The notes beneath the pieces are model-generated. The model ran no database searches and was not told where the DNA came from. It saw only the letters and a list, made by a program, of their open reading frames with translations. DNA of 64,000 bases from Candidatus Omnitrophota bacterium (lineage in GTDB: Bacteria > Omnitrophota > Gorgyraeia > Gygaellales > Profunditerraquicolaceae): the NCBI GenBank assembly GCA_963805065.1, contig CAWDSS010000010.1, positions 339,696 through 403,695 of the forward strand. Direction: 5' to 3'. This document shows positions 19,001 through 49,121 of the stretch, piece after piece (positions within the stretch are counted from its first letter, which is position 1; each line of letters opens with the position of its first letter). The translations under genes and the position numbers were made by a program.

Positions 19001-19011
19001 GGATTTTGTGA

Positions 19012-19121
19012 TCCCTCGCGTAAACGCTTGAAAATTACTTTGTAATTTTCTGCGCACGCTTCGGGATTAATTCACCCAGACAACTTACTCACACTTCGTG
19101 TTCGTAAGTTGTGGGTTCATT
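19012..19121. repeat. Composite hairpin repeat, type II (H4 + H1)
   Basis: H4 at 19012-19066 reads TCCCTCGCGTAAACGCTTGAAAATTAC-TTT-GTAATTTTCTGCGCACGCTTCGGGA. H1 lies at 19069-19121. A homologous module lies at 41827-41966. Confidence 0.8.
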
Positions 19122-34853: not shown

Positions 34854-36304
34854 TATTTTATTAAGCCCAGCATTTGCTGGACGCTAAATTGCGCAAACTT
34901 CATAGGATACCAGACTAAAATTCCGCTCGCAATGGAAAGAAAACCCAGCATGGCTACTGAAATAACCATTACGTGGCTTGCTTCCCTTGCCTTGGGACTG
35001 TGCGGCTCACCCAGAAAAACCAGGTTAAACACTCTGAAAAGATACATTATAGTCATAAACGCAATAGCTAAGAAAGCAGCGCCAATCCAAAGATGCCCGC
35101 TCTTAATTACGCCTGCGAATATAAGATACTTGCTGAAGAATCCTCCGAAGGGCGGTATGCCCATTACGGAAAATGCGCAAAATAAAAATGCTACTGCGGT
35201 TACAGGCATGGTAGAAATCAGGCCGCCAAGTTTTGTAATATCCTTGACCTTGGTATTTTGCTCCACTATACCTGCGCAAAGGAAAAGCCCGGCTTTGGCA
35301 ATGCCATGCATAAGTATGAATAACAATCCTCCCACTACAGCAACATCATTGCCTAGGCTCAAGCCAAAAAATATAAAACCAATCTGGCTAATGGTTGAAT
35401 AGGCAATAATTCTCTTTAAATCTGTCTCTCTAAGGGCGGCACCTGCTGAAACCAATGCGCTCACTGCGGCAATTATTGGCACTACTACATGCCAGAATTG
35501 CTCCAGCGTAAATGTGGCTAAAAACAGCCTGGCAAAAACATACACGCCTATTTTGACTAACACAGCAGCATGTAACAAGGCAGTAACCGGCGAGGGAGCA
35601 ACACCAGCGTCCGGCAACCAGGTATGAAAAGGTAAAGTCGCGGATTTAGAAAGTATGCCGATAAGAATTAACCCTACTGCTAAATTAGGAAGCGGGCTAT
35701 TTTTAAATGTTTCTTTGATAACTGCCAGGTCAAATGAGTTTGCCTGCTGATAAATAATGATAAAACCGATAAGCATTGTCAGGGCGCCGAATACAGTGAC
35801 TAAAAATGCCTTGTCTGCTTTCAAAACATAAGGTTTATCACGAAAGAAACCTATTAAGCGCCAGCTGGTTATGGCAGTAATTTCCCAGAAGACATACAGC
35901 AATATCAGATTCCCGGAAAAAATCAGGCCCATCATCGCACCCAGGAACAAAACCACCATGCAATAATATTCATTCTGGTTCTTATAATGGCTTATATAAC
36001 CGAAGGAATACAGGACAATTATCGTGCTGATTAAAGAGGAGACAATCGCCATGAACACTGCCAGGCTGTCAGCGGTAAGAGAAAAATTAATGCCCAGTGC
36101 AAATTGTTTAGTGAGGGAAATGATTTTGCCTGATAATACAGGCGAGATCAGGGTAAGAGAGCAAACTAAAGAAGCAGCCACGAAACTTAAAGCCAGCCAA
36201 TTCCTCAAACGCAGAGAAATTTTGCCAACGACAGGCAGCAAGAATGCCCCGATTACCGGAACACAAACTATGCTTAAAAGTATGTATTCAAAATTTATAC
36301 CCAT
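34853..36304 (-). CDS. Antiporter-like subunit (MrpD/NuoM family)
   Basis: 483 aa with HTWLPDAGVAPSPVTALLHA motif. Confidence 0.85.
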   Translation of the reverse strand: MGINFEYILLSIVCVPVIGAFLLPVVGKISLRLRNWLALSFVAASLVCSLTLISPVLSGKIISLTKQFALGINFSLTADSLAVFMAIVSSLISTIIVLYSFGYISHYKNQNEYYCMVVLFLGAMMGLIFSGNLILLYVFWEITAITSWRLIGFFRDKPYVLKADKAFLVTVFGALTMLIGFIIIYQQANSFDLAVIKETFKNSPLPNLAVGLILIGILSKSATLPFHTWLPDAGVAPSPVTALLHAAVLVKIGVYVFARLFLATFTLEQFWHVVVPIIAAVSALVSAGAALRETDLKRIIAYSTISQIGFIFFGLSLGNDVAVVGGLLFILMHGIAKAGLFLCAGIVEQNTKVKDITKLGGLISTMPVTAVAFLFCAFSVMGIPPFGGFFSKYLIFAGVIKSGHLWIGAAFLAIAFMTIMYLFRVFNLVFLGEPHSPKAREASHVMVISVAMLGFLSIASGILVWYPMKFAQFSVQQMLGLIK

Positions 36305-36413
36305 CTGCCTTAGTTAAAAAAAGCCCCTCTTTTGTTTTTTACCCATTTTTGGATTAGTCCGTCTCTTCTTCTTATCAACCCTGATAATAAGATATGATGG
36401 GGGTGGGAAGTCT

Positions 36414-36441
36414 AATATAGCAAAAATCCGCGGATTGTCAA
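36414..36441 (-). promoter_or_regulatory. Sigma70-type promoter of the hydrogenase operon
   Basis: The minus sense reads TTGACA-N16-TATATT. Confidence 0.5.
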
Positions 36442-36485
36442 GCCAATTAAGGCTGTTTAACTTACCCTAGAAACGGTATTGGGAT

Positions 36486-37406
36486 TTATAAATTTTTATA
36501 GTAATTATAGGTGAGTAATGTGACATCGGATATAAACTTCTTAGTATTCCTAGCAAATCTATCTTCATGCTTAGCCAAAACACAAATTAGGAAATTTCCT
36601 TTATTAGTAAATACAATCCCCACATCATGACAAACATGTCTTTCTAAGCCGGTCTTATGAACAACATAGGTTCCTCTTGGTAGTTTTCTGGGGATGCGGT
36701 CGTTAATTTTCTGCTGCCCTAATAATTCCAGGCATTTTTCGGAAACATCTTTATTTAAAAACTTCTTATAATATAGTTGTTCCAGCAAATAAGCCATATC
36801 CCCGGCTGTGGTATAGTTCTCTTCGCCTTCCCTTCTTTCTTTGAAATCCATCATTTTGCGGGCAATATTAGTATTTTTTAAGCCCATTTTCTTAAAATAA
36901 GTGTTTAGTGTATCGAATCCCAGGTAATCTATCAATACATTGGCCGCAGCATTATCACTCTGGGTAATCATAGGATTAAACAATTCTTCCACTGTAAAGA
37001 CTGAACCGGCCGGCTCTCTTCCCAGCACCTTTGATCCGGATACTTTCTGGCAAGATTTAAGGCTTATGATATCTTTTAGGCTAATTTTGCCATCTTGCGC
37101 TGCGTAAAAACAAGACAGCATAATGGGAACTTTTACTAAACTTGCAGAAGGAATTAGCGTATCTTCATTAAAAGCAATCTCCCGTTCCATATCTAAATCT
37201 TCGACCACTAATCCGACTGTGCCCCTAAAATGCCTGACTTTATTTTCCAAGGTATTTTTTAAACGCAACCACTCAACTTGTCTTCTCTCTAAGGGGCTCT
37301 GTCCTCTTGCAATATTCTGATGTTCTTTATATATTTTGTATGAAAATAGTAAAGCTGCCGCGAGGACAATAAACAAAACCATAAAAATTATTATTTTTCT
37401 TTTCAT
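36486..37406 (-). CDS. Class A beta-lactamase-family serine hydrolase, membrane-anchored or secreted
   Basis: SxxK (SLVK), SDN (QSDNAA) and KTG (HKTG) motifs occur in the correct order. Confidence 0.75.
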   Translation of the reverse strand: MKRKIIIFMVLFIVLAAALLFSYKIYKEHQNIARGQSPLERRQVEWLRLKNTLENKVRHFRGTVGLVVEDLDMEREIAFNEDTLIPSASLVKVPIMLSCFYAAQDGKISLKDIISLKSCQKVSGSKVLGREPAGSVFTVEELFNPMITQSDNAAANVLIDYLGFDTLNTYFKKMGLKNTNIARKMMDFKERREGEENYTTAGDMAYLLEQLYYKKFLNKDVSEKCLELLGQQKINDRIPRKLPRGTYVVHKTGLERHVCHDVGIVFTNKGNFLICVLAKHEDRFARNTKKFISDVTLLTYNYYKNL

Positions 37407-37492
37407 AATTAATAGCTACCCTGGAGTGGTAATAAGAAAAACGGCAGGCAACTATTGTTATGCCTGCCGTAATCGCCTGGAGAATTTATTTA

Positions 37493-37927
37493 TTATTTAC
37501 TTTCGCCTTGTTCTGACTTAGGTTCTACTTTTTCTCCGACTTCCTCTTTTTCCTTCTTTTCTTGCATCATTTTCTGCATTTCGCTCTTGGGCTTACCTGC
37601 ACACATTTCCTGTAATCCCTTTGCTAAATCCGGATTGGATTTTTGAAGAGCTGCTGAGGCATCTTGCAGAAGCTTTACTTTTGCGTCATGTTTTGTTTTC
37701 CATTCCTGCATTTCTTTTGCTTCTTTATCTGCATAATCGCTTAATCCCTTTGCTAAATCCGGATTGGATTTTTGCAGGGCTGTTGCAGAATCCCTAAGAA
37801 GCTTTACTTTTGCGTCGTGATTCATCTTCCCTGTCTTGCACCCTTCTTCCGCAAATGCTAAGCTAGAAAGAAAAACAACCATTCCCGCTACAGCTAACCC
37901 GATTACTATGGTTCGTAAAGATTTCAT
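37493..37927 (-). CDS. Secreted protein with two tandem ~46-aa repeats
   Basis: Signal peptide present. HDAKVKLL..ALQKSNPDLAKGL occurs twice, and strong SD GGAGGG precedes the start. Confidence 0.6.
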   Translation of the reverse strand: MKSLRTIVIGLAVAGMVVFLSSLAFAEEGCKTGKMNHDAKVKLLRDSATALQKSNPDLAKGLSDYADKEAKEMQEWKTKHDAKVKLLQDASAALQKSNPDLAKGLQEMCAGKPKSEMQKMMQEKKEKEEVGEKVEPKSEQGESK

Positions 37928-38128
37928 ATGTCCCTCCTTTCATATAGAGGCATAGTATAACATAAGAACCTAATTAGTAAAGTAAAAACTAACGCTATGT
38001 AAATTGTGCCATAACTTAAACAAAATTTTCTTTACATAAAAAATTAATAAACCTTGTAAAGCAACAAGAATAGTGTATACTTAGAGTGTAGACAACACAA
38101 GCTGTAGAATCAGGTTGTAGAGTCGCGG

Positions 38129-38168
38129 AAAAGGCGTCAGTAATAAACTCGACGCCTTTTCTGTTTTT
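38129..38168. terminator. Bidirectional rho-independent terminator
   Basis: AAAAGGCGTC-N12-GACGCCTTTT is followed by CTGTTTTT on the plus strand and TTTTCC on the minus strand. Confidence 0.7.
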
Positions 38169-38181
38169 AGGGACTTACCGT

Positions 38182-38448
38182 TTATTTTAACTTTTTCTCT
38201 TCCTTTACAGCTTGCCCCTCTACGTCTATAACGTTACTGTGTTTTGAAGAGAAAGAGAAGATTTTTCTCATGGCAATGCGCGCATTAAGCATAAATAATA
38301 AAATCAGGGTCCCCTCAATCAATAACCATACATGCAGCTTAAAAAACATCCAACCAAACAACAGATTGAATAATATAAGAGAAGGCAAAAAACATCCTGC
38401 CTGGCTTACAAAAAATATGGATTGATTGTGGGAATGTAATTTTGCCAT
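38182..38448 (-). CDS. Small membrane protein (88 aa, 2 TM)
   Basis: Start ATG 38448 (MAKLHSHNQ). The track start at 38496 lies inside the promoter repeat. Confidence 0.5.
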   Translation of the reverse strand: MAKLHSHNQSIFFVSQAGCFLPSLILFNLLFGWMFFKLHVWLLIEGTLILLFMLNARIAMRKIFSFSSKHSNVIDVEGQAVKEEKKLK

Positions 38449-38468
38449 ATAAAAACCCTCTGCGATAT

Positions 38469-38571
38469 ATTCTATCACAGAAGGCCATGAATTCAACCTC
38501 CGCCTCGCCCGTGCTTCCTCGCTTCCTATGCCAAACCTAATTTCCTTCCCATGCGCTAGGTAGAAACGATC
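38469..38571 (-). repeat. Promoter-bearing cassette repeat, E1
   Basis: The minus sense reads TTGAAT (38496-38491)-N16-TAGAAT (38474-38469) with a TG extension. The upstream part aligns with E2, E3 and E6. Confidence 0.75.
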
Positions 38572-39204
38572 TTAAGATTTCCGCTGCTCCTCTTGTTTTT
38601 TCTTCTCTTCGGTAACATCTCTGGCTATATGCACAAACTCGATAATCTCTCCCTTTTGATTTTTGATTGGATAAGCGGTAACCTCGGAGTAGAATTTTCC
38701 TGTAGCCCCCTGATGAAGGTGAACCTCTTTGGTTGGCATGCCGGTCTTAAGAACCTGCGCAATGGGACAGATATCATGGGGCGGTTGGCAGGGAACTTTC
38801 TGATTATGCGTGACTTCGTAGCAATACTTTCCCGTCAAGTCGTCTATTTTACACCCGAATTGGTTTAAAAATGTTTTGTTTGCCCATAATATCTTAAAAT
38901 CCTTAGAAACAAGGATTATCTGTTCCGTGATTCCGTTAACGATATTCTCCAGGAACTGATTTACTTTATACAATTCTGACTCCAAATGTTTACGCTGTTC
39001 AATCTCAATATGGAGCTGTTTATTGATGATTCGTTCCGCGGAAGTGCGGCTTTCCACCCGCTCTTCAAGGGTCAAGACGAGCTGCTTTAATTTCTCATCC
39101 TTAAGCTTCAACCTGCGCTCCAGCTTTTCGGTCCTCTCCAGCTGGCTGCTTAAAGATTCCACTTCTTTAATTAGCTGTTTGTTGGTTTTTTCTTTATTAT
39201 TCAT
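38572..39204 (-). CDS. Coiled-coil plus PAS domain protein with no output domain
   Basis: 210 aa with a heptad-rich N-terminus and a PAS-like core ITEQIILVSKDFKILWANKTFLNQFG. Confidence 0.7.
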   Translation of the reverse strand: MNNKEKTNKQLIKEVESLSSQLERTEKLERRLKLKDEKLKQLVLTLEERVESRTSAERIINKQLHIEIEQRKHLESELYKVNQFLENIVNGITEQIILVSKDFKILWANKTFLNQFGCKIDDLTGKYCYEVTHNQKVPCQPPHDICPIAQVLKTGMPTKEVHLHQGATGKFYSEVTAYPIKNQKGEIIEFVHIARDVTEEKKKQEEQRKS

Positions 39205-39225
39205 TTTATTCTCTTTCCAACATAT

Positions 39226-39340
39226 ATTCTATCACAGAGGACTATGAATTCAACATCCGCTTCGCCCGTGCTTCCCCAGGGACACTTCTATCAAAACTAA
39301 TTTACCTGCAATGTCTTATCAAGAAACGGTCTTGAGACTT
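39226..39340 (-). repeat. Promoter-bearing cassette repeat, E2
   Basis: AAGTCTCAAGACCGTTTCTTGATAAG..GGAAGCACGGGCGAAGCGGATGTTGAATTCATAGTCCTCTGTGATAGAAT. Confidence 0.8.
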
Positions 39341-39353
39341 TATTGAGACTTTA

Positions 39354-40664
39354 CTATTGAGTAAGTTTAGAACTTTTTTTCTTTGGAGAAGACATACTAC
39401 TGTTTACTGTAGAGGGCGGTTCATTTATAGCTCCGGCTTGTCTAAGTAATTGAACTATATCACTGTGGTTGCGTGATTCGGCTTTCATTAAGGCTGTTTC
39501 GCCAATATCTGATTTTACATTTACATCTACGCCTTTGGAAATAAGCAGTTCAACTATTTCTTTTTTGTGACTCTCTGCTGCAAACATCAAGGCTGTTTCA
39601 CCTTTGCTATCTTTGGCATTTATATCTGCGCCTTTAGAAAGGAGTAGTTTTGTTATTTCTTTACGGCCATAAGACGCGGCAAGCATCAAGGCTGTCTTAT
39701 GATGTGCATCTTTAGCATTTACATCTGCGCCTTTGGAAAGGAGTAGCTCTACGGCTTCTTTATTGTGACTCTCTGCTGCAAACATCAAGGCTGTTTCACC
39801 ATTATTCGCTTTGGCATTTATATTTGCACCTTTGGAAATAAGCAGCCCTACTGTTTCTTTATTACCGTAACGAAAGACGACCATTAAGGCTGTTTTACCT
39901 TTGCTATCTTTGGCGTTAACATCTGCACCTTTGGAAAGAAGCAATTCTACGGCTTCTGTACGACCATAAGACGCGGCAACTATCAATGCTGTTTCACCAT
40001 TGTTTGTCTTGGCATTTATATCTGCACCTTTGGAAAGAAGCAATTCTATTATTTCTTTGTTGCCCTCTACAGAAGATATTAAAGCTGTTTTACCCGTGTT
40101 ATCTTTGGCATTTACATCTGTACCTTTGGAAAGAAGCAGTTCTACGGCTTCTGTACGACCATAAGACGCGGCAAGCATCAAGGCTGTTTTACCGTTATCC
40201 TCTTTTGCGCTTACATCTGCGCCCTTAGAAAGAAGTAGTTCTGCTATTTCTTTGTCGCCATTAGCTGCAGCAATCATCAAAGCTGTTTTACCTTGTATAT
40301 CTTTAATATTTACATCTGCGCCTTTGGAAAGGAGTAGTTTTGCTATTTCTTTACGGCCATAAGACGCGGCAAGCATCAAGGCTGTTTTACCTTTGCTATC
40401 TTTGGCATTTACATCTTCACCCTTGGAAAGAAGCAGCTCTACGGCTTCTTTATTGTCACCCTCTGCAGCAATCATCAAAGCTGTTTTACCCTCGTCCTGT
40501 TTAGCGCTTGAATTTCCCATTGATTGTGAAATTTTCTTAGTTTTGGATTTCTTTATAGGACCGGTTAATGGATTTTCTTCTGCTTCAGCATATAATGATA
40601 CATGGTGTAAAATGGTAAACAATAACCCGAGAATTAAGCTTACAATTATAAGCTTTTTATTCAT
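39354..40664 (-). CDS. Secreted ankyrin-repeat protein (~11 ANK repeats)
   Basis: Signal peptide present, followed by 33-aa units GKTALM.AA..G..E.VELLLSKGADVNAKD, equivalent to 99-bp DNA periodicity. Confidence 0.9.
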   Translation of the reverse strand: MNKKLIIVSLILGLLFTILHHVSLYAEAEENPLTGPIKKSKTKKISQSMGNSSAKQDEGKTALMIAAEGDNKEAVELLLSKGEDVNAKDSKGKTALMLAASYGRKEIAKLLLSKGADVNIKDIQGKTALMIAAANGDKEIAELLLSKGADVSAKEDNGKTALMLAASYGRTEAVELLLSKGTDVNAKDNTGKTALISSVEGNKEIIELLLSKGADINAKTNNGETALIVAASYGRTEAVELLLSKGADVNAKDSKGKTALMVVFRYGNKETVGLLISKGANINAKANNGETALMFAAESHNKEAVELLLSKGADVNAKDAHHKTALMLAASYGRKEITKLLLSKGADINAKDSKGETALMFAAESHKKEIVELLISKGVDVNVKSDIGETALMKAESRNHSDIVQLLRQAGAINEPPSTVNSSMSSPKKKSSKLTQ

Positions 40665-40736
40665 ACGTCCTCACTTTTTTCAATTATACCACTGTCATTT
40701 AAAAATCGTAGGAAAACAAAACTCTCTGCAACATTT

Positions 40737-40848
40737 TTGTCACAGAGGGCCATAAATTCAACACCCGCCTCGCCAGTGCTTCCTCAGAGACACTTCTGTC
40801 AAAACTAATTTACCTACAATGCCTTATCAAGAAACGGTCTTGAGACTT
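40737..40848 (-). repeat. Promoter-bearing cassette repeat, E3 (degenerate -10)
   Basis: Aligns with E2 over about 110 nt. The -35 TTGAAT lies at 40764-40759. Confidence 0.75.
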
Positions 40849-40859
40849 TAATTCGAGAG

Positions 40860-41132
40860 TTATTTCTTCAGCATCTCTGGCTTAACTGCTATAACATTCA
40901 GCTTTTTATTTGCATTATCCAATTCTTTTTTTACCTTATCCAACTCTTTTTGTTTTTCCATGAGCTTACCGGTGACCTTCATAATCTCAACACCTTGTTG
41001 CTGAATAATCTGCGTTGACTTGGCTATTAATTCTTGGTTTACTTTTCCATACATAATAGTGCTTGCCACAAAAGCAATGGCTAGAATTATAACTAAAACT
41101 GATAATGTAGCTTTACTCAATTTGATATTCAT
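40860..41132 (-). CDS. Small membrane-anchored coiled-coil protein (90 aa)
   Basis: N-terminal TM helix, strong SD GGAGGG. Confidence 0.55.
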   Translation of the reverse strand: MNIKLSKATLSVLVIILAIAFVASTIMYGKVNQELIAKSTQIIQQQGVEIMKVTGKLMEKQKELDKVKKELDNANKKLNVIAVKPEMLKK

Positions 41133-41151
41133 TTTCCCTCCTTTTCAAGAA

Positions 41152-41182
41152 ATTATATCACAGAAAATCATGAATTCAACAC
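41152..41182 (-). repeat. Promoter-bearing cassette repeat, E4 (promoter core only)
   Basis: The minus sense reads TTGAAT-N16-TATAAT with a TG extension. Confidence 0.7.
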
Positions 41183-41194
41183 TCACCTTGATTG

Positions 41195-41219
41195 AACATA
41201 TCACAAATTGTGATATGTT
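41195..41219. promoter_or_regulatory. Perfect 25-bp palindrome, candidate operator
   Basis: AACATATCACAA-A-TTGTGATATGTT lies about 15 nt upstream of the E4 -35. Its half-site TGTGATA also occurs inside every E-repeat promoter spacer. Confidence 0.5.
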
Positions 41220-41247
41220 AATAGCCTACCCCCCCCATTTTTTTACT

Positions 41248-41784
41248 CTAAATATGGAACCCTATGGCTGTTGTTTGTTTTGGCGGTGTAAGCAACTGCC
41301 TGATTGCTTCAAAAATGTAATTTATTTTCTCATCATGATCCGAATATTTCTTTTCTAACTCTTCAAGCTTAATAGCAATATCCTTGCGAGTCAAGAGCAG
41401 CTCTTTTAATCTTACGAATGCACGCATTATGAGAATGTTCACTTGAATTGCCCTTTCGCTATTTAATACGCTAGATAACATGGCTACTCCCTGCTCTGTG
41501 AAAACGTAAGGCAGATACTTAATATTTTGGCCTTGTTTCAAGGTCACAATTTGTGACCTTGAATTCAAGGTCGCAAAATGCGACCTTGAAGATTCTACTT
41601 CTTCCCGCGATAACTGAAACATAAAATCATCGAGAAACCTCTTTCTGTTCCTTCGCACCTGCTCATTTAATCTCTTAGTATCAACCCCATAAAGTTTGGC
41701 TAAATCTCTATCCAACATTACCTTTCTGCCTTTCACTACTATAATCTTTGTTGCAATTGCCTCTATGGTCACAATATTAGCCAT
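41248..41784 (-). CDS. ORF6N-domain DNA-binding protein (phage antirepressor-type)
   Basis: IVVKGRKVMLDRDLAKLYGVDTKRLNEQVRRNRKRF matches my recollection of the ORF6N family. Confidence 0.7.
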   Translation of the reverse strand: MANIVTIEAIATKIIVVKGRKVMLDRDLAKLYGVDTKRLNEQVRRNRKRFLDDFMFQLSREEVESSRSHFATLNSRSQIVTLKQGQNIKYLPYVFTEQGVAMLSSVLNSERAIQVNILIMRAFVRLKELLLTRKDIAIKLEELEKKYSDHDEKINYIFEAIRQLLTPPKQTTAIGFHI

Positions 41785-41826
41785 TGTCCACCTCCTACTC
41801 TAATAGAAAGTGGAAAAATCTAACAC

Positions 41827-41966
41827 TCCCTCGCTTAAGCACTTGAAAATTTCTACGAAATTTTCTGCGTAAGCTCGGGATAAATTCGCAGACGCAGGAT
41901 ACTTTCGGGTTCAATACCGCTACACTTTACGTCACTTAGTTCCGTAAAGTGTCTGCTCATTTAAAA
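41827..41966. repeat. Composite hairpin repeat, type II (H4 + H1 variant)
   Basis: TCCCTCGCTTAAGCACTTGAAAATTTCTACGAAATTTTCTGCGTAAGCTCGGGATAAATTC.. aligns with 19012-19075. The H1 variant ACACTTTAC..GTAAAGTGT lies at 41922-41952. Confidence 0.7.
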
Positions 41967-41980
41967 AGCCCTCTGCGACA

Positions 41981-42020
41981 TATCTATCACAGAGGGCCAT
42001 GAATTCAACATCCGCCTCGT
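41981..42020 (-). repeat. Promoter-bearing cassette repeat, E5 (truncated)
   Basis: The plus strand reads TCTATCACAGAGGGCCATGAATTCAACATCCGCCTCG. Confidence 0.7.
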
Positions 42021-42034
42021 AAAGAATTAACTAT

Positions 42035-42469
42035 TTACAACCAAGTACCGGTAATTGACATTGAAGCCACAAAGAATGCCCAGAAGGAATACCATGCTAC
42101 GAGCAGAATAAAGCTTATTGTTAGCCATCTGAAACCGTTCATCTTATAAACTAAATATCCACTTACAATTAATTGAATTAAAACGATGATTTGAAGGATA
42201 AATAATGATTGCCCTGGTACTAACCTAGGATTAAATTGCGCACACATTACTGTTCCCCAAAATAAAACTAATACAGGGAAAATAATTGGTATTAATATTA
42301 ATAAATGTTTTAACTCCATCTTTATTTCCTTTTTCCTAAGGGTACATACCAACGAAAAGATAAAGTGGGCAATGATTAGTAGGGTAATCTGTAAAAAATA
42401 TCCGAATCTCGTAATTAAACATGTCAACGCCATAAAAGCAAGCCAAAGGAAATAGCGCAAATAGTACAT
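42035..42469 (-). CDS. Integral membrane protein (144 aa, ~4 TM)
   Basis: Hydrophobic throughout; SD AAGGAGA precedes ATG 42469. Confidence 0.55.
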   Translation of the reverse strand: MYYLRYFLWLAFMALTCLITRFGYFLQITLLIIAHFIFSLVCTLRKKEIKMELKHLLILIPIIFPVLVLFWGTVMCAQFNPRLVPGQSLFILQIIVLIQLIVSGYLVYKMNGFRWLTISFILLVAWYSFWAFFVASMSITGTWL

Positions 42470-42514
42470 TTATTCTCCTTTTTTTAAATTGCTTATTAAA
42501 ACAAAACCTTTGAT

Positions 42515-42602
42515 ATTCTATCACAGAGGGCCATGAATTCAACCCCCGCTCAGCTGTACTTCCTTAAGTTAGACTGCTTACCTAGAAACGGTCTTGAGAC
42601 TT
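42515..42602 (-). repeat. Promoter-bearing cassette repeat, E6
   Basis: AAGTCTCAAGACCGTTTCTAGGTAAG..GGGGGTTGAATTCATGGCCCTCTGTGATAGAAT begins about 30 nt after the SIR2 gene stop. Confidence 0.8.
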
Positions 42603-42631
42603 ATTGTAAAAAATTTAAGGCACGAGTAAGT

Positions 42632-43846
42632 TTAATAAGAAGTTAGAAACGAATCAAACTTAGAACTATTAAATAAGTTTGAAAATTTATAATCAATAAC
42701 TACAGATTCTGGTTTAATCTGAAATATTTCCGCTACAGATTTTTTCTTTTTCAGCTCATCATCTGCATTTAATTGGTCCCCTAAACATACTAATATTTTT
42801 TGTTCAATAGCCTTGCCGCGCCTAATCATACTAGGAATCTGAAATATTCTCTGAGCATGGTAGTCTGCAAAAGGAAAAGAATAGCCAATAATTATAACCA
42901 TATCTGCTTCTTTTAATAATTGGATAGCTCCTCGCCATTGGTTAATTAATAGTCTCGTAAGGGGATCTGCTAAGCGTGAATCATCATTTATTTCTTGTTT
43001 GAATATTGTCGGCGGAACGATAGCTGGTTCAACAAAGCTATTAGCAGATAAACTATTAGTTGGGTAACTAGGAGTTACGGAATCCCCATAAAACTCAATA
43101 TCATTACAACCGAACTCCATCTTCCAATTAAGTGAACCGTGTAGCTTTAAGATCAATGGTTCTTTAGAAAAACTGTCTATAAAGTAAGGATTGCCCATAT
43201 CATCATTAACACCTAAATATCGGGGATTCATGCCTAAGTTTTTTAATGATTTTTCTAGGATTAAGTCATAGTTAAACGTTATATATCCTAAGATCGAATG
43301 CCCATAGTTTGAAATCAATTTATGTAGTTTGTCGTAATTTGTTTCAATTTTATACCATAATTCTGTGACAGTTAATATTTTATCTATCAGCCTTTTCAGA
43401 TCTCTACCACAATCGCCTAAGAATTTGAATTTACTATAAGTTGGCTCCATATTCATTACAGCAAAATTTCCAGCTTCCCCTGAAATTAATGTTGTAGAAA
43501 TAACGTCAGAAAAGGGATACGAGGATTTGCCATGATTTAAACACTCTATGTGGTATCGTTCGTTTTCCTGAGACCATGAATAAGTATTCAACATGATATG
43601 TTTATGATTCAGATCTACAGCTGTCCATAGCTCTTCTAGGCTTATATTATTCTTATATGGCAGAAACCATTCTCGAAACTTATTTATTGCATAGAAATCG
43701 TCCCCGCGGTTTAATACTTCCTTAACTCCTGCATGTTCAAAGAAATTTCTATCTGTTGGCGGTGGACAACTTCTATTGTGATAATAAGTTTCAAAACCTG
43801 AATCATGCGATGCTCCGCTACCATAAACTATAACAATTTTAGACAT
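42632..43846 (-). CDS. SIR2-like (SIR2_2-type) protein, putative NAD-consuming effector
   Basis: 404 aa containing VIVYGSGASHDSG (glycine-rich NAD loop), ITFNYDLILEKS, ILKLHGSLNW and VIIIGYSFPFADYH, in the order typical of prokaryotic defence SIR2 domains. Confidence 0.75.
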   Translation of the reverse strand: MSKIVIVYGSGASHDSGFETYYHNRSCPPPTDRNFFEHAGVKEVLNRGDDFYAINKFREWFLPYKNNISLEELWTAVDLNHKHIMLNTYSWSQENERYHIECLNHGKSSYPFSDVISTTLISGEAGNFAVMNMEPTYSKFKFLGDCGRDLKRLIDKILTVTELWYKIETNYDKLHKLISNYGHSILGYITFNYDLILEKSLKNLGMNPRYLGVNDDMGNPYFIDSFSKEPLILKLHGSLNWKMEFGCNDIEFYGDSVTPSYPTNSLSANSFVEPAIVPPTIFKQEINDDSRLADPLTRLLINQWRGAIQLLKEADMVIIIGYSFPFADYHAQRIFQIPSMIRRGKAIEQKILVCLGDQLNADDELKKKKSVAEIFQIKPESVVIDYKFSNLFNSSKFDSFLTSY

Positions 43847-43893
43847 GAATTACCCCATTTATCAATTATTACAAAAAAATAATTGATGGAAAC

Positions 43894-44505
43894 TTATTCT
43901 TGCTGAAAGTCCATAGTCCCACCTACATCTATTATCTTACCCTGCTTTTTAAGCGGCTCGATTTTACTTATACTTTTAGCTAAAATTCTCTTTTGAATCG
44001 GAGATAATTTATCATAAGCTTTAAACATTTTAAAATACTGTTCTAACACTCTGTAGTTGCCAATCGCTTGTTCTTGCTTGTTCCTAAATAACAAATCTTT
44101 TAACAGCTCTCTTAATTCTTTAAGGATTTCGCCTATCCCTTCAAAGCTTATAATACCAGGAGAACCCATTCTAATATGATAGATCTTGAGAGAATTAGGT
44201 ATCACTTCTTTTTCAAAGAGTTTCCCAATAAGAGGTGAAGAAAAATTATTCGTTCGCAACACCTCAGTTAATAAACTCATCCTTACAAAATGTTGTTTTA
44301 TCGCGTACTTTTTTGGAAAGATATCATCCATATCTCTATGTTTAAGAAGAAGCAACACTTGTTTTTCTTTTCCAATATTGACTTTACAAAGAATTTCATA
44401 TATTTTTGAAATACTTGTTAGAAGAATCTTCAGATTATTTGCTGTCCATTTATTATCCGTTCTAAAAACAAGGAGCTCGAACTTTTTTACAATTTGTGTC
44501 GTCAT
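43894..44505 (-). CDS. Hypothetical protein (203 aa), middle gene of the SIR2 island
   Basis: Intact ORF with SD AAGGAGA. No motif was recognised. Confidence 0.6.
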   Translation of the reverse strand: MTTQIVKKFELLVFRTDNKWTANNLKILLTSISKIYEILCKVNIGKEKQVLLLLKHRDMDDIFPKKYAIKQHFVRMSLLTEVLRTNNFSSPLIGKLFEKEVIPNSLKIYHIRMGSPGIISFEGIGEILKELRELLKDLLFRNKQEQAIGNYRVLEQYFKMFKAYDKLSPIQKRILAKSISKIEPLKKQGKIIDVGGTMDFQQE

Positions 44506-44523
44506 TCTGATCTCCTTTAAAAA

Positions 44524-45222
44524 TTAAACTTCCGAAATAACAAAATTCATAAAATCTGTGGCATGAGAAGTTAGTCGAAAATAACCTCTTTTGTAATCAT
44601 AAGTTCCAATTGCATAGTCATAAAGTAAATTATAACGCAGAAGATCATTACAAAATGCTTCCGCTTGTGATTCAGTAATATTTAACTTTTCAGATAATTT
44701 TTTAATATCTAAAACACCCTCTGGCAGTCTGTTTTCTACTACGAATAATTTCTCATTATCTATATAAAGTTTTAGAATTTCTATGTGTAGTTCAGATAAG
44801 TCATTTACGATATTTATAAATCTTTCTTTAAAATAATAATCCGATTTACCTTTCTGTATAGAATTAACAAAAATGTTCTTAAAATATCTTACCTTTCTCT
44901 TTTCCCTACATTTAATTGCACTATCATATATTTTTAGAAATAAATAAAACGCGTCTTCGTTATTAAAGAAGTCCTTATCTATTTTACTTTCTTCGAGTTT
45001 TCTTAATGATTCGGCAATTTCTTCAAAAAGAAGGTCTGTTCTTTCTTTTATTGCTTTGGATCCCTTATATGCAAGAAGATTATCTAATAATCCGCCTACT
45101 GGATGAGGAAGCCCCTTAATAAGAACCCTTAGGTCTATGCTGTTATAATATTTTTGGGATCCTTTTACAACGATTTTATCTATTTTTTCAAGTGCTTTGA
45201 TTTTTCTAAAGAATATATTCAT
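44524..45222 (-). CDS. Hypothetical protein (232 aa), first gene of the SIR2 island; possible C-terminal winged-helix
   Basis: Intact ORF. The C-terminal stretch LSEKLNITESQAEAFCNDLLRYNLL looks HTH-like. No SD is present. Confidence 0.55.
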   Translation of the reverse strand: MNIFFRKIKALEKIDKIVVKGSQKYYNSIDLRVLIKGLPHPVGGLLDNLLAYKGSKAIKERTDLLFEEIAESLRKLEESKIDKDFFNNEDAFYLFLKIYDSAIKCREKRKVRYFKNIFVNSIQKGKSDYYFKERFINIVNDLSELHIEILKLYIDNEKLFVVENRLPEGVLDIKKLSEKLNITESQAEAFCNDLLRYNLLYDYAIGTYDYKRGYFRLTSHATDFMNFVISEV

Positions 45223-45291
45223 GATTTAATTGTAAATCTATAATATAAAGAATCTTCAAGGCTGCTTCTTAGAAACGTATGTTTTCTATTT

Positions 45292-45329
45292 CAACAAAAA
45301 AGGCTACTCCTTTTTTAAAGAGTAGCCTT
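45292..45329 (-). terminator. Rho-independent terminator separating the ATPase gene from the SIR2 island
   Basis: The minus sense reads AAGGCTACTC-TTTAAAAAA-GGAGTAGCCTT followed by TTTTTGTTG. Confidence 0.75.
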
Positions 45330-45412
45330 AAATTTAGATTTTTATCCCATGTTTACTCCTTGGGATATTTTACCGCTAGGTGGAAAGCTGTCAACCAGAA
45401 AATATGTGGCCA

Positions 45413-45577
45413 GCGGGTGACGAGGCATGTTTCGAGCGGCACATAAGGAAGCCGGAGCGGGCATGGTTTGCCTCGTTAGAAAAGTCTCCAAGAGCGAAGG
45501 CTTCCGCTTGAGCGAAGATTTTCCACGCTGGGGAAAATCGAGCGATGACGCGAGGAACGTGCCTCGGCAGGACCCGC
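45413..45577. mobile_element. GC-rich MITE-like element, copy 2 (165 bp)
   Basis: Reverse-complement match to 11268-11431. The inverted ends extend to GGCCAGCGGGT / ACCCGCTGGCC. Confidence 0.8.
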
Positions 45578-45621
45578 TGGCCCGTAAAACAAACAGGGAC
45601 AGTCCCTGTTTATAGATGATT

Positions 45622-48600
45622 TTAGCGAGTAGGGATGGTGACGCCCTTCCTCAACATCTTCTTCCTTAATTCTTCCAGGCAGAATATCACAACCATGAAA
45701 GCAAACAACATCCCCCACTCCTGCCACCCCAGCCCAATCGTATTAAATATCTTCTGGAAGAATGGCACATAAATCAGCATGCAGGCGAAAGACAACTCAA
45801 AGACAATACCCCAAAGAATCAGCTTATTGCTGAAGAAACCGATTTTAAACGCCGAGAGCTTTTCGCTGCGGCAGGCAAACACATTAGCGATCTGCATCAC
45901 CACAATCCCTATGAACACAATTGTCGCAGCCTTAAGGTGCAAAGGATTGGTGAATGTCGTATCATTAGGTTCAAGCTGCATCCCCGGCCTCCATCCGCCC
46001 TGCAAAAGCACAAAATAATAGGCGCTTAGAACTGCTACTGAATTAAGCAATCCCAGAATTATATAGCCGCGCGAAAGCACTATTTTATCAATAACTCCTT
46101 TTTTCTTCGGCCGCGGCGGAAGCTCCATAATCCCCGGCTCGGGTTTTTCAATACCTAATGCCAGTGCCGGCAAGGTTTCTGTGCCTAAATCTATTGCCAA
46201 AATCTGCATGACTGTAATGGGCACGGGTATTTTAAGCAATACGTAAAAAATAAAGGGTATTGCTTCCGGTACAAGGTGCGCGAATATATAGGTAATGAAT
46301 TTCTTGATATTATCAAATACAGCGCGGCCTTCTTCAATAGCAGCAACAATACTGGCAAAATTATCGTCAATCAAAACCATTTCTGCCGATTCTTTTGCCA
46401 CATCTGTCCCGCGCATACCCATGGCAACACCGATATCAGCTCTTTTTAATGCCGGAGCGTCATTAACTCCGTCCCCTGTAACCGCAACAATATTTCCCAG
46501 CTCCTTAAAAATATTTACCACCCTTAATTTATGCTCTGGGTTAACCCTGGCAAACACAACTTCTTTCTTTGTAAGCTTATCTTTTAACTGCTCATCGCTT
46601 AAATCTGCCAATTCTATTCCTGTAATAACTTCAGGGTTGTCCGAAGCAACAATGCCTACTTGCCGCGCAATTGATAGAGCGGTTATCTGGTAATCGCCTG
46701 TAATCATCACTACCCGGATTCCTGCTTTCCTACAAACAGCGACTGCTTGTTTTACTTCCGGCCTGGGCGGGTCATACATCGCTGCGATACCGATAAAAAT
46801 TAAATCCTTTTCCACTGTCTGCGCTGTTGCATCCGGAATATCTTTAGCTTCCAGGTTACGGCAAGCAAAACCCAGGATGCGTAATCCATCCTGGGCAAAA
46901 TTATCAATCTGACGAATAATCTCTGATTTCTTTTCTGGTGTTAAATCAATACTGTCTTTGCCAACCATGATTTTGCCGGAAAGTTCAAGCAGCTCCTTGG
47001 GAGCTCCCTTCACACAAGCACAAAGCTTCCCCTCCGCAAGCTTATTGATGGTGCTCATTCTTTTACGCACGGATTCAAAAGGAAAACGCTTCTGGAATGG
47101 ATAATTCTGGCGTTCCTTTTCATTATCAAAACCTGCTTTTAGAGCCAGGGTTAATAATGCTCCTTCAGTAGGATCTCCTATTATGCTCCAGTAATTTTGG
47201 GCTTCTGTGGGAGCAACAAGCTTTGCCGTATTGCATAAAACTCCTGCACGGATTAAAATATCCAGATTATCATTCTTAAGGTCATTGCTGGAAATCGCCT
47301 TTCCACTAAGAATAAATTCGCCCTCAGGGTCATAACCGCTGCCTGTAACCTCTATTACCTTATTATTAATCCATATTTTCCTTACGCTCATTTGATTAGT
47401 AGTGAGCGTGCCTGTTTTGTCTGTGCAGATCACATTTGTGCAGCCAAGCGTTTCAACAGAAGAAAGTTTTTTAATTAAGGCGTGCTTCTTTGCCATCCTT
47501 AACACAGCCATGGAAAGCGCAAGCGTGAGTGTCGGCATAAGGCCCTGGGGAACATTAGCCAGGATAATTCCTATGGCAAACATTGCCGAGGCAATCAAGG
47601 TCATCTTGGTAAAAGCCAAACCTACGAAAAAGAAAATAAACCCCATAAGAACTGATATTCCCGCGATTAATTGGCTGATACGGTTTACTTCTCTTTGTAG
47701 CGGGCTTAACTCTTCTTTAACGGTTTGCGTTAAATAAGCGATTTTGCCGATTTCTGTAGCCATGCCAGTAGCAACTACTACGGCTTTACCCATGCCAGAG
47801 GCTACGCTGGTACCTGCGAAAACCAAATTAGGCATTTCCAGCCACAAGAAACCCTTACTATCATGAAAAGCCTCTGCCATCTTATGCGAAAGTTTTGATT
47901 CACCGGAGAAAGCACTGTTATTTACGCGTAGCTCCTGCGCTTCAATCAACCTGGCATCAGCAGGGATGTTATCCCCTTCCTCTATAATAATGATATCTCC
48001 CGGCACAATGTCGCTGGTAGGAACTTTTTTCTCCGTGCCCTCCCGTATTACGCGGGCAAAAGAAGGAATCAACTTATTTAAAGCCTGTATTGCCTTCTCT
48101 GCCTTGGATTCCTGCCAGAAACTGAATATCGCGTTGACAAAAATTACAACTATGCATGCCCATCCTGCTTCAGGCATCTGCGCCAGGAAACAAAGCGCGC
48201 CGCCTACCCACATGAGGATTGCCAACAAATTAGTAAAATTAGATAAGAAACGGATAATCAGGGGAGTTTTCCTTATGGCCTTTAATTTATTCAGGCCGTA
48301 TACTTCCAGGCGTTTTTTGGCAGATACTTCGGAAATCCCGTTATCACTACTGGCAAGCTCCAGATAAATCTCATCCTTGGTTAATGCCAGGAATTCTTCT
48401 CTTTCAATTCCCTTTTGCTTAAACAAGCGAAAAAGCTCATCGTTGTTTGGGGAATTCAGAAGCTGGCTGGTAAATACTTTATTGTTTAGCAGGCTTACTA
48501 TTTTAGAGAGGATTTTTAAATGCAACTCGCTTTCTAAAAGAGGGGTGAGAAAAAGCATGACTAGATTTACAGGTTTTCCGTCCAGAGAAGAAAATTTTAT

Positions 48601-48858
48601 GCCTTGCTTGGAAACGCCCACAAACAAGACTGCCTCTTTTAACTCGGCAATTCTTGCGTGCGGGATAGCCACGCCATTTCCTATGCCGGTAGTGCCCAGT
48701 TTCTCTCTCTTAAGCAGGCTCTCTAAAACCTGTTTTTTATCTTTAATCTTGCGGCACTTATACAGCTGGTCCACAATTTCCAGAATTACGCCTTCTGAGG
48801 TAGTGGATTTTAAACTTGCATTCAACTGCTCTTTAAATACTAAATCGGAAATCTTCAT
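45622..48858 (-). CDS. Cation-transporting P-type ATPase (type II/III-like) with an N-terminal PTS EIIA(Ntr)-type domain
   Basis: ATPase motifs DKTGTLT, TGDGVNDAPAL and MITGD are present. The N-terminal ~150 aa (about 48408-48858) carry GTTGIGNGVAIPHAR..SLDGKPV..HLKILSKIVSLL, paralogous to ptsN in this window. Start ATG 48858 (MKISDLV) follows AAGGAA. Confidence 0.9.
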   Translation of the reverse strand: MKISDLVFKEQLNASLKSTTSEGVILEIVDQLYKCRKIKDKKQVLESLLKREKLGTTGIGNGVAIPHARIAELKEAVLFVGVSKQGIKFSSLDGKPVNLVMLFLTPLLESELHLKILSKIVSLLNNKVFTSQLLNSPNNDELFRLFKQKGIEREEFLALTKDEIYLELASSDNGISEVSAKKRLEVYGLNKLKAIRKTPLIIRFLSNFTNLLAILMWVGGALCFLAQMPEAGWACIVVIFVNAIFSFWQESKAEKAIQALNKLIPSFARVIREGTEKKVPTSDIVPGDIIIIEEGDNIPADARLIEAQELRVNNSAFSGESKLSHKMAEAFHDSKGFLWLEMPNLVFAGTSVASGMGKAVVVATGMATEIGKIAYLTQTVKEELSPLQREVNRISQLIAGISVLMGFIFFFVGLAFTKMTLIASAMFAIGIILANVPQGLMPTLTLALSMAVLRMAKKHALIKKLSSVETLGCTNVICTDKTGTLTTNQMSVRKIWINNKVIEVTGSGYDPEGEFILSGKAISSNDLKNDNLDILIRAGVLCNTAKLVAPTEAQNYWSIIGDPTEGALLTLALKAGFDNEKERQNYPFQKRFPFESVRKRMSTINKLAEGKLCACVKGAPKELLELSGKIMVGKDSIDLTPEKKSEIIRQIDNFAQDGLRILGFACRNLEAKDIPDATAQTVEKDLIFIGIAAMYDPPRPEVKQAVAVCRKAGIRVVMITGDYQITALSIARQVGIVASDNPEVITGIELADLSDEQLKDKLTKKEVVFARVNPEHKLRVVNIFKELGNIVAVTGDGVNDAPALKRADIGVAMGMRGTDVAKESAEMVLIDDNFASIVAAIEEGRAVFDNIKKFITYIFAHLVPEAIPFIFYVLLKIPVPITVMQILAIDLGTETLPALALGIEKPEPGIMELPPRPKKKGVIDKIVLSRGYIILGLLNSVAVLSAYYFVLLQGGWRPGMQLEPNDTTFTNPLHLKAATIVFIGIVVMQIANVFACRSEKLSAFKIGFFSNKLILWGIVFELSFACMLIYVPFFQKIFNTIGLGWQEWGMLFAFMVVIFCLEELRKKMLRKGVTIPTR

Positions 48859-48880
48859 ATGTTCCTTTCTTACGCCTCTA

Positions 48881-48911
48881 CAAAAACTAAACCAGAGAAC
48901 GCCTTCTCTGG
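48881..48911 (-). terminator. Leader (attenuator) terminator just upstream of the ATPase RBS
   Basis: The minus sense reads CCAGAGAA-GGCG-TTCTCTGG followed by TTTAGTTTTTG. An upstream GAGAAC can compete for GTTCTC. Confidence 0.6.
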
Positions 48912-49121
48912 TGTGTTCTCTCAATCGGGCTTACGAGGTTAGCTGTCGGGCTCGGGCTGAGTTACCCTAATCCTTTTTAAGGGATATTCGCCCCAAAAGG
49001 GGCGTACTTGGCAATCCTTTATGCCAAGGTGCGCCCCAAGATCTCATCACAAGATCAATCTTGGTTTCCCCGCTATCTTTTAATTCTACAAAAACAAGAA
49101 TTAAAAGAGATTAAGCATATT
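48912..49121 (-). promoter_or_regulatory. Structured 5' leader of the ATPase gene (unclassified riboswitch or attenuator candidate)
   Basis: Helices include CCAAGAT..ATCTTGG and CTTGGCA..TGCCAAG. CGCCCC can pair either with the upstream GGGGCG or with the downstream TTTT-GGGGCG, which are mutually exclusive. Confidence 0.45.

Follow-up and report, generated by a model that had tools for sequence, protein, structure and literature searches.

Six copies of a short intergenic module, E1 to E6, were analyzed in a 64-kb window of a Candidatus Omnitrophota genome (assembly GCA_963805065.1, contig CAWDSS010000010.1, positions 339,696 to 403,695; "the window" denotes this whole stretch of 64,000 nucleotides, numbered from its first letter). 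All six lie on the minus strand within 4.2 kb, and each stands ahead of a different gene, unrelated to the others. The reading favored here, for which we hold evenly balanced confidence, is that the module represents a promoter/terminator joint of a small gene-capture array, resembling the PeSL (promoter-early stem-loop) elements of T4-type phages, which are repeats of an early promoter plus a stem-loop, and residing in a chromosomal, low-GC, defence-flavoured accessory island. The evidence comprises the conservation of the module, the position of the junctions of a captured gene, and the promoter and hairpin signals that the copies carry.

In the full copies (E1 and E3), the module is arranged as a left block, a middle part, a GC-rich block, a promoter, a short leader, a Shine-Dalgarno sequence (SD), and an ATG. 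The copies, a seventh partial copy (E0), and the matches to a core pattern are as follows.

42515-42602, minus strand: E6, ahead of the gene for a four-transmembrane (4-TM) protein; left block at 42584-42602, -35 box TTGAAT at 42537-42542, TG-extended -10 box TAGAAT at 42515-42520, no right-hand hairpin, and a deletion of about 27 nt in the middle part.
41964-42020, minus strand: E5, short form; -35 box at 42003-42008, degraded -10 box TAGATA at 41981-41986, hairpin at 41967-41998 followed by a T-run.
41152-41218, minus strand: E4, promoter core only; -35 box at 41174-41179, TG-extended consensus -10 box TATAAT at 41152-41157, preceded by the palindrome ACATATCACAATTTGTGATATGT at 41196-41218.
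40715-40850, minus strand: E3, full length; left block at 40830-40848, -35 box at 40756-40761, degraded -10 box CAAAAA, hairpin at 40724-40747 with a T-rich tail.
39222-39353, minus strand: E2; left block at 39322-39340, -35 box at 39248-39253, TG-extended -10 box TAGAAT at 39226-39231, no hairpin.
38449-38580, minus strand: E1, full length; diverged left block at 38562-38580 that includes the stop codon of the PAS gene, -35 box at 38491-38496, -10 box TAGAAT at 38469-38474, hairpin at 38454-38486 followed by a T-run.
36460-36487, minus strand: E0, left block only (AAATCCCAATACCGTTTCTAGGGTAAG, block at 36469-36487), directly past the stop codon of a beta-lactamase gene; a weak match.
38475-38496, 39232-39253, 40740-40761, 41158-41179, 41987-42008, and 42521-42542, minus strand: matches to the pattern TTGAATTCATNNNNNTCTGTGA.

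The core shared by E1 to E6, GTTGAATTYATRRYYYTCTGTGAYA, is absent from the other 60 kb of the window, and the six matches that TTGAATTCATNNNNNTCTGTGA has in the window were reached in 0 of 100 dinucleotide shuffles. A preliminary description of this DNA had placed six copies here; their coordinates, sequences, and common strand proved right, and the count of six stands, although E0 behind the beta-lactamase gene had been missed. The alignment of the six copies that it proposed yields 21-29 matching positions of 29 between any two cores, with the invariant positions GTTGAATT.AT.....TCTGTGA.A.A. E2 and E3 are 89-91% identical over about 100-116 nt, and for the remaining pairs the identity upstream of the core is 61-85%. 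The 19-nt left block, AAGTCTCAAGACCGTTTCT, is without mismatch in E2, E3, and E6, carries three mismatches in E1, and is absent from E4 and E5. It begins 0-33 nt past the upstream stop codon and in E1 contains that codon; the left edge of E2 bears an 11-nt tandem duplication, TAAAGTCTCAA. The middle part is moderately conserved, with AAATTAGKTTTG present in E1 to E3, and the block upstream of the -35 box, GGAAGCACGGGCGAGGCGG (about 70% GC), is conserved in E1 to E3 and partly in E5 and E6. Module length varies from about 30 to 135 bp, with E5 retaining only about 26 nt 5' of the -35 box and E4 reduced to the promoter core, and the gap between a module and its downstream gene ranges from 19 to 196 nt. 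E0 is followed by an unrelated promoter, TTGACA-16-TGcTATATT (36414-36441), ahead of the Mrp/hydrogenase genes.

Beyond the window, the module was sought with a degenerate 25-mer that matches all six copies. There were no matches in 185,579 GTDB species-representative genomes and none in IMG/VR, and a single match was found in 241 million JGI metagenome records, in a contig referred to as L001. A blastn search with E2 returned nothing from INPHARED phages or PLSDB plasmids, and a profile hidden Markov model of the module, run over 1.57 Mb of fetched loci, recovered the six copies and L001 only. The L001 copy has a perfect 29-nt core, lies downstream of a gene pair that reads as toxin-antitoxin-like, and is located 20 nt from the end of its 1,081-nt contig, a position typical of repeats at which short-read assemblies break. 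The left block also had viral 18-mer matches (L106 and L107), which fall inside phage coding sequence and were dismissed as chance.

The clearest indication of gene capture comes from the PAS gene, which occupies the interval between E2 and E1.

38584-39223, minus strand: PAS cassette, bounded by E2 on the 5' side and E1 on the 3' side (Pfam; DNA homology to other Omnitrophota contigs).

Homologues of this gene on metagenome contigs (L094-L103) share 84-86% identity with it at the DNA level and 84-85% at the protein level. In L094-L098, L100-L103, and L105, the homologue is embedded in a packed operon with intergenic gaps of only a few nucleotides, in the order response regulator, (serpin), M15 peptidase, PAS, (187-aa protein), bestrophin-like protein, and 69-aa protein; in L099 it stands behind a different promoter. 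None of these native neighbours is present in the window. DNA homology between the window and L099 spans 39223-38584. At the 5' junction it starts at the gene's own ribosome-binding region (TTGGWAAGAGAATAWAATG), 3-5 nt past the -10 hexamer of E2, and at the 3' junction it ends about ten codons before the native stop codon and 4 nt before the left block of E1, which supplies the stop codon of the window gene. Because the homology stops, on either side, only a few bases from a module edge, the gene appears to have been captured between modules. Insertion of modules into pre-existing intergenic DNA is unlikely, since neither the native neighbours nor the rest of the PAS 3' end reappear beyond E1. 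As judged from these homologous loci, at least the PAS gene is thus shown to have entered the array from an unrelated operon context, with its junctions at module edges, in support of the cassette-array-like layout proposed in the preliminary description.

A second unit, which encodes an ORF6N protein behind E5, is homologous to its relatives over 41825-41249 only; these relatives are solitary genes between housekeeping genes and lack the module. No module was found at the loci of ORF6N, PAS, or two-transmembrane (2-TM) protein homologues, including the closest 2-TM homologue. The absence of the module from the ORF6N and 2-TM homologues indicates that it is a property of this array and does not generally travel with the genes.

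A separate repeat was observed in L099, where a 20-nt inverted repeat (1761-1780/2254-2273, 95% complementary, core GGACCGTTTCC) flanks a 473-nt segment with a 99-aa open reading frame (ORF) upstream of the closest PAS homologue. It was considered as a relative of the left block (core GACCGTTTC) and rejected: the nhmmer comparison gave E = 5.8, and the corresponding 9-mer was seen 6 times against 5.3 expected, which is no enrichment.

A scan for consensus promoters identified TTGAAT-16-TAGAAT with an upstream TG in E1, E2, and E6 and TTGAAT-16-TATAAT with TG in E4. The spacer that separates the -35 box from the -10 box is exactly 16 nt, and the extended element reads TG-n-TAGAAT. E1, E2, E4, and E6 probably function as sigma-70 promoters, judging by these matches. 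The near-consensus extended -10 box previously ascribed to the copies accordingly exists in these four of six, with degraded boxes in E3 (CAAAAA) and E5 (TAGATA). The genes behind E3 and E5 start far from their modules (69 and 196 nt, respectively), and each has an extended -10 candidate of its own.

40683-40691, minus strand: second extended -10 box, TGGTATAAT, downstream of E3 (sequence reading).
41817-41825, minus strand: extended -10 candidate, TGTTAGATT, of the ORF6N gene.

The former is likely the working promoter of the ankyrin gene behind E3, as predicted from its sequence and position. E4 is the most diverged copy, and its changes follow the pattern predicted by selection for promoter function: the -35 box, spacing, and TG are kept, the sole change in the -10 box produces the consensus, and four of the five core changes fall in the spacer.

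Two hairpins have to be distinguished in the module. The one in the left block, TCAAGA-CCGTT-TCTTGA, had been proposed as a terminator. It comprises 6 bp, is AT-rich, has no T-run, and forms in E2 and E3 only, being broken by substitutions in E1, E6, and E0. Since its sequence is conserved but its structure is not, and since it is weak and without a T-run, it is not regarded as a terminator. The second hairpin, which had escaped notice, is strong, overlaps the -10 box in E1, E3, and E5, and is followed by a T-run. Its arms are formed by the spacer plus -10 box (GGCCCTCTGTGATAG), which pairs with the leader (..CGCAGAGGG). The predicted energies are -20.2 kcal/mol for E1 (z = -4.1), -14.6 for E3 (z = -3.0), and -26.0 for E5 (z = -6.1), and a terminator scan reported all three. 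The L001 copy likewise has a hairpin and T-run, so that the four copies span -14.5 to -26 kcal/mol and z of -3 to -6. No comparable hairpin was found in E2, E4, or E6 (z of -0.7 to +0.9). The 3' arm, AGAGGG, serves as the SD of the 2-TM gene in E1, 7 nt before its ATG, and of a 35-codon ORF in E5. One pair of the hairpin forms a U-A/U-G/C-G series across copies. The case for the hairpin rests on thermodynamic stability in four independent copies and not on covariation. In E1, E3, and E5, it may well act as an insulating terminator, to judge from its fold and T-run. The earlier notion that every cassette carries the same terminator-plus-promoter insulator does not hold, because a convincing hairpin occurs at the other end of the module and in only three of the six copies.

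The hairpin alternates strictly along the array: absent in E6, present in E5, absent in E4, present in E3, absent in E2, and present in E1. Such an alternation would give three transcription units of two genes each, with the last gene on its own; given a total of six copies, chance is also a possible cause.

Based on these features, a simple model would suggest that each module promoter drives the captured gene downstream of it, and that the hairpin distinguishes between two kinds of transcript. In E1, E3, E5, and L001, the promoter spacer and -10 box would make up the 5' arm and the SD the 3' arm, with the U-run next. Both arms would be present in read-through transcripts from the upstream gene, resulting either in termination at the U-run or in a masked SD. 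Transcripts that start 6-8 nt past TAGAAT would contain the 3' arm only; no hairpin could form, and the SD would be free for translation. The net design would be a compact, self-insulating promoter. By analogy with PeSLs, homologous recombination by which single genes are inserted, deleted, or swapped would probably use the shared homology of about 30-135 bp as its substrate. That capture proceeded by homologous recombination between modules is, on this analogy, a tentative suggestion somewhat short of an even prospect.

By architecture, the nearest described system is the PeSL of T4-type phages, which appears closer than the integron. PeSLs combine a repeated sigma-70-like early promoter with a stem-loop, mostly within the -35/-10 spacer or in overlap with the -10 box; they begin at the stop codon of the upstream gene and extend as far as the SD and start codon of the following gene, show conservation over about 100 bp, and concentrate in hyperplastic regions beside ORFans (Arbiol et al. 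2010, PMC2839356; Comeau et al. 2014, PMC4122927). They have been shown to act as promoters and terminators, and recombination between them deletes, inserts, and circularises single genes; the authors likened cassettes of a PeSL plus an ORFan to integrons (PMC2839356, PMC4122927). The module described here shares the sigma-70-type promoter (complete in E1, E2, E4, and E6) and a predicted stem-loop that often overlaps the -10 box. It likewise flanks small, unrelated, often orphan genes, its copies are co-oriented and clustered in a variable region, and it reaches from the upstream stop, which in E1 lies within the left block, to the SD formed by the 3' arm. In contrast to PeSLs, it is located in a bacterial chromosome with housekeeping flanks instead of a phage genome, and it has an additional conserved left block and a predicted stem-loop in three of six copies only. 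Promoter, terminator, recombination, and mini-circle activities have been demonstrated for PeSLs; for the present array, promoter, terminator, and recombination activities are predicted from sequence. The blastn search with E2 found no similarity to the phage records of INPHARED. By this comparison, the array would work like a PeSL array, and it is not filed as a member of the PeSL family.

Several observations weigh against the reading of the module as a PeSL-like joint. The -10 boxes of E3 and E5 are poor, and the genes behind them seemingly have their own promoters. Outside the core, the copies are 61-91% identical, which makes them a poor substrate for RecA-type recombination today. The tract upstream of the -35 box is GC-rich here and AT-rich in PeSLs, and the left block is conserved without an assigned role. 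The hairpin occurs in only half of the copies, and its covariation is not significant with seven sequences (197 of 500 shuffles have at least as high a percentage of paired cells).

The array also resembles integron cassette arrays and clusters of attC sites lacking an integrase (CALINs), in that co-oriented, single, unrelated accessory genes are separated by a repeated element of 60-140 bp, and GTTGAAT in the module is a formal match to the R' core GTTRRRY. Cassettes of integrons have no promoter and are read from Pc, whereas each gene here has its own promoter. Both DNA strands of E1, E2, E3, and E6 fold no better than shuffled sequences (z of -0.27 to +0.68) and form no end-to-end hairpin, the window contains no intI, and the 5' junction of the PAS gene lies about 30 nt downstream of GTTGAAT and not within G|TTRRRY. 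The absence of an attC-type fold and of an integrase in the window, together with the position of the junction, thus bears out the earlier view that this is not a standard integron. An attachment site that is integron-like in function, for a recombinase encoded outside the window and with the promoter as a passenger, would be an unlikely explanation; the core site would be the left-block palindrome or another part of the module. Such an origin would accommodate the sharp junctions of the PAS cassette at module edges, the identity of the left block over 19 nt in three copies, the left-block-only E0 that marks the island end, and the tandem duplication at the left edge of E2. It is difficult to reconcile with the lack of a recombinase gene within 64 kb and of a tRNA adjoining the island, with the absence of an attC-like fold, with the lack of any left block in E4 and E5, and with a palindrome that is broken in E1, E6, and E0.

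A regulatory origin, improbable to a similar degree, would have a local promoter and operator copied by duplication or gene conversion and kept by selection for a single co-controlling regulator, with no role in mobility. Invariant positions that reach past the hexamers (GTTGAATT.AT and TCTGTGA), a palindrome (TGAATTCA) that overlaps the -35 box, and the conservation of GGAAGCACGGGCGAGGCGG in E1 to E3 and partly in E5 and E6 are in keeping with it; the regulator might bind that palindrome or the GC-rich block upstream. Selection by a regulator leaves unexplained both the 89-91% identity of E2 and E3 over about 100 nt, including sequence next to the upstream stop codon, and the cassette junctions at module edges, and no candidate regulator was identified. 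This idea is compatible with a PeSL-like joint and is no true alternative to it. Less likely still is a small non-autonomous mobile repeat, either a miniature inverted-repeat transposable element (MITE) or an element of the Correia or IS200/IS605-PATE type, which would carry an outward promoter and have inserted repeatedly, making the array look incidental. The Correia elements of Neisseria are intergenic repeats, about 100-150 bp long, from which nearby genes can obtain promoters and terminators; they are characterized by terminal inverted repeats and TA target duplications and occur in hundreds of dispersed copies. The module is similarly a short intergenic repeat bearing promoter and terminator signals, hairpins lie near both ends of its full copies E1 and E3, the copies are uniformly oriented, related Omnitrophota contigs contain Y1 transposases, and L001 ends at the repeat. 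A repeat search and inspection of the edges revealed no terminal inverted repeats or target-site duplications, and the six copies are confined to one array of about 4 kb (4.2 kb), with none in the other 60 kb of the window, none in the 185,579 species-representative genomes or IMG/VR, and one in the JGI metagenomes. Moreover, no remainder of the PAS 3' end follows E1, and the window lacks the native PAS neighbours. A structured cis-regulatory RNA (leader, attenuator, or riboswitch) or a small RNA, with the promoter function secondary, is a very remote prospect. It would draw on the stable hairpin and U-run with the SD as 3' arm in E1, E3, E5, and L001; against this, no Rfam family matched 36000-46000 at E up to 1, apart from weak hits to palindromes in the ORF6N gene, the upstream 80-100 nt fold no better than shuffled sequence, and the hairpin is missing from half of the copies without significant covariation.

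Two further comparisons concern the promoter and the genes. An invertible promoter (inverton) was rejected, as no inverted repeats flank the copies. Phage morons are single accessory genes inserted between other genes as autonomous transcription units with their own promoter and terminator. The array is alike in presenting single accessory genes as separate transcription units and differs in its shared, repeated module and in the absence of prophage genes; to our knowledge, morons do not share one repeated promoter module.

In addition to the PAS cassette, the array and its surroundings contain the following features.

42035-42469, minus strand: 4-TM protein gene, 144 aa, behind E6 (translation inspected).
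41853-41960, minus strand: 35-codon ORF whose start is provided by the SD and ATG of E5, sharing its register with the 2-TM gene behind E1; about 70 nt separate its end from the start codon of ORF6N.
41248-41784, minus strand: ORF6N (KilA-N-like) gene, behind E5 (Pfam; PADLOC candidate PDC-S05).
40860-41132, minus strand: gene for a 90-aa protein with an N-terminal transmembrane anchor and a coiled coil, behind E4 (translation inspected).
39354-40664, minus strand: ankyrin-repeat protein gene, 436 aa with a signal peptide, behind E3 (Pfam; matches PADLOC PDC-M72A).
38182-38448, minus strand: gene for a small 2-TM membrane protein of 88 aa, behind E1; an intrinsic terminator follows near 38130-38165.
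36400-45300, minus strand: low-GC accessory island between the Mrp/hydrogenase cluster and a P-type ATPase gene, holding the array, a SIR2 unit, the beta-lactamase gene, and a gene of unknown function.

The gene identities given in the preliminary description agree with Pfam for the PAS, ankyrin, and ORF6N genes and with inspection of the translations for the 2-TM, 4-TM, and membrane-anchored coiled-coil genes, and its statement that the genes are mutually unrelated is likewise supported. The 2-TM protein is a member of a real family with about 69 representative clusters. The 4-TM protein is an ORFan, as a search of 5.8 billion proteins found only itself. The ORF6N protein matches PDC-S05 over its full length (1.7e-55). 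From its register and position, the 35-codon ORF may be the stump of an earlier cassette gene that was displaced on arrival of the ORF6N unit.

The island (36.4-45.3 kb) has a GC content of 0.27-0.39, compared with 0.41-0.46 in its flanks, which are of housekeeping character, with the Mrp/group-4 hydrogenase cluster on one side and the P-type ATPase on the other. Downstream of the array lie the gene of unknown function and then the beta-lactamase gene, which is of class-A type. Upstream lies a three-gene unit on the minus strand (42632-45222; GC 0.28-0.33; proteins of 232, 203, and 404 aa) without a module of its own. Its last protein, of 404 aa, is SIR2-like and matches the PADLOC Aga_SIR2 and SIR2 models, which makes the unit a candidate defence system directly upstream of the array. 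Going by the profile matches to SIR2, PDC-S05, and PDC-M72A, the island content is of defence type. Inspection of the translations and a Pfam spot-check showed the remainder of the window to be of housekeeping character and found no recombinase or transposase encoded in the 64-kb window, and no phage structural or integration genes were found around the array. No tRNA gene adjoins the island, the only tRNAs in the window being located at 3.5-4.4 kb, 32 kb away. Homologues of the ORF6N and PAS genes, together with relatives of the ATPase, assign the organism to Candidatus Omnitrophota.

Additional observations concern the ORF6N genes. The coding sequence in the window contains two adjacent 27-nt palindromes at 41537-41590, TTCAAGGTCACAATTTGTGACCTTGAA and TTCAAGGTCGCAAAATGCGACCTTGAA, which are conserved in homologues on other contigs. 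A 45-nt fragment of these palindromes is found in L001 (977-1021), 8 nt upstream of its module, and the palindrome ahead of the E4 promoter (41196-41218) is related to them. By their symmetry they may be candidate binding sites of the ORF6N DNA-binding protein itself. ORF6N genes close to that of the window form more than 7,900 clusters in Omnitrophota (E up to 1e-20) and often stand alone between housekeeping genes or at contig ends, a distribution that suggests a multi-copy, possibly mobile gene family.

Other features of the window were noted in passing. The gene of unknown function (144 aa, 37493-37927) contains an 89-nt direct repeat (37613-37830, 83% identical, spacing 129 nt), which amounts to an internal duplication in the protein. 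Downstream of the ATPase gene is a GC-rich non-coding stretch of about 300 nt (45300-45620, minus strand), followed by a strong promoter, TTGACA-16-TAAAAT (45367-45394), about 40 nt with a small hairpin, and a strong intrinsic terminator (45300-45329). By its layout, this promoter-terminator unit (45300-45394) looks like a small RNA gene, and it has no Rfam match. The P-type cation ATPase (45622-48924) carries an N-terminal fusion to a PTS EIIA-2 domain, which is kept at 70-82% identity in metagenome-assembled genomes labelled Omnitrophota, Phycisphaerae, and Planctomycetia (L002-L012) in non-syntenic surroundings. At these loci the ATPase alone is shared, and no analogous intergenic repeat arrays were found. 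The housekeeping genes carB, carA, pyrG, gltB, and glnA are split into two to three overlapping or adjacent ORFs (14544-15991, 16228-17308, 17392-19057, 55089-60123, and 61156-62440), which suggests either frameshift errors typical of long-read assemblies or real pseudogenes.

The significance of the array depends on the nature of the module. If it is merely a locally duplicated promoter, it is a modest curiosity. The arrangement of promoter and terminator as portable homology has so far been described in the hyperplastic regions of T4-type phages. A PeSL-like joint in Omnitrophota would allow a bacterial chromosome to capture single genes and equip them with expression signals independently of an integron integrase, the module serving as the portable homology. 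A promoter in the 5' arm of a terminator with the ribosome-binding site in the 3' arm would also be a compact natural insulator of interest to synthetic biology. More generally, and as a speculative extension that we consider rather doubtful at present, Omnitrophota chromosomes may build accessory and defence islands by an integrase-independent capture array in which a self-insulating module is both the expression signal and the recombination joint; such an array would be the first cellular counterpart of phage PeSLs. If true, this would offer an assembly mechanism for small variable or defence islands in an uncultured phylum that has been little studied and whose mobilome is very active.

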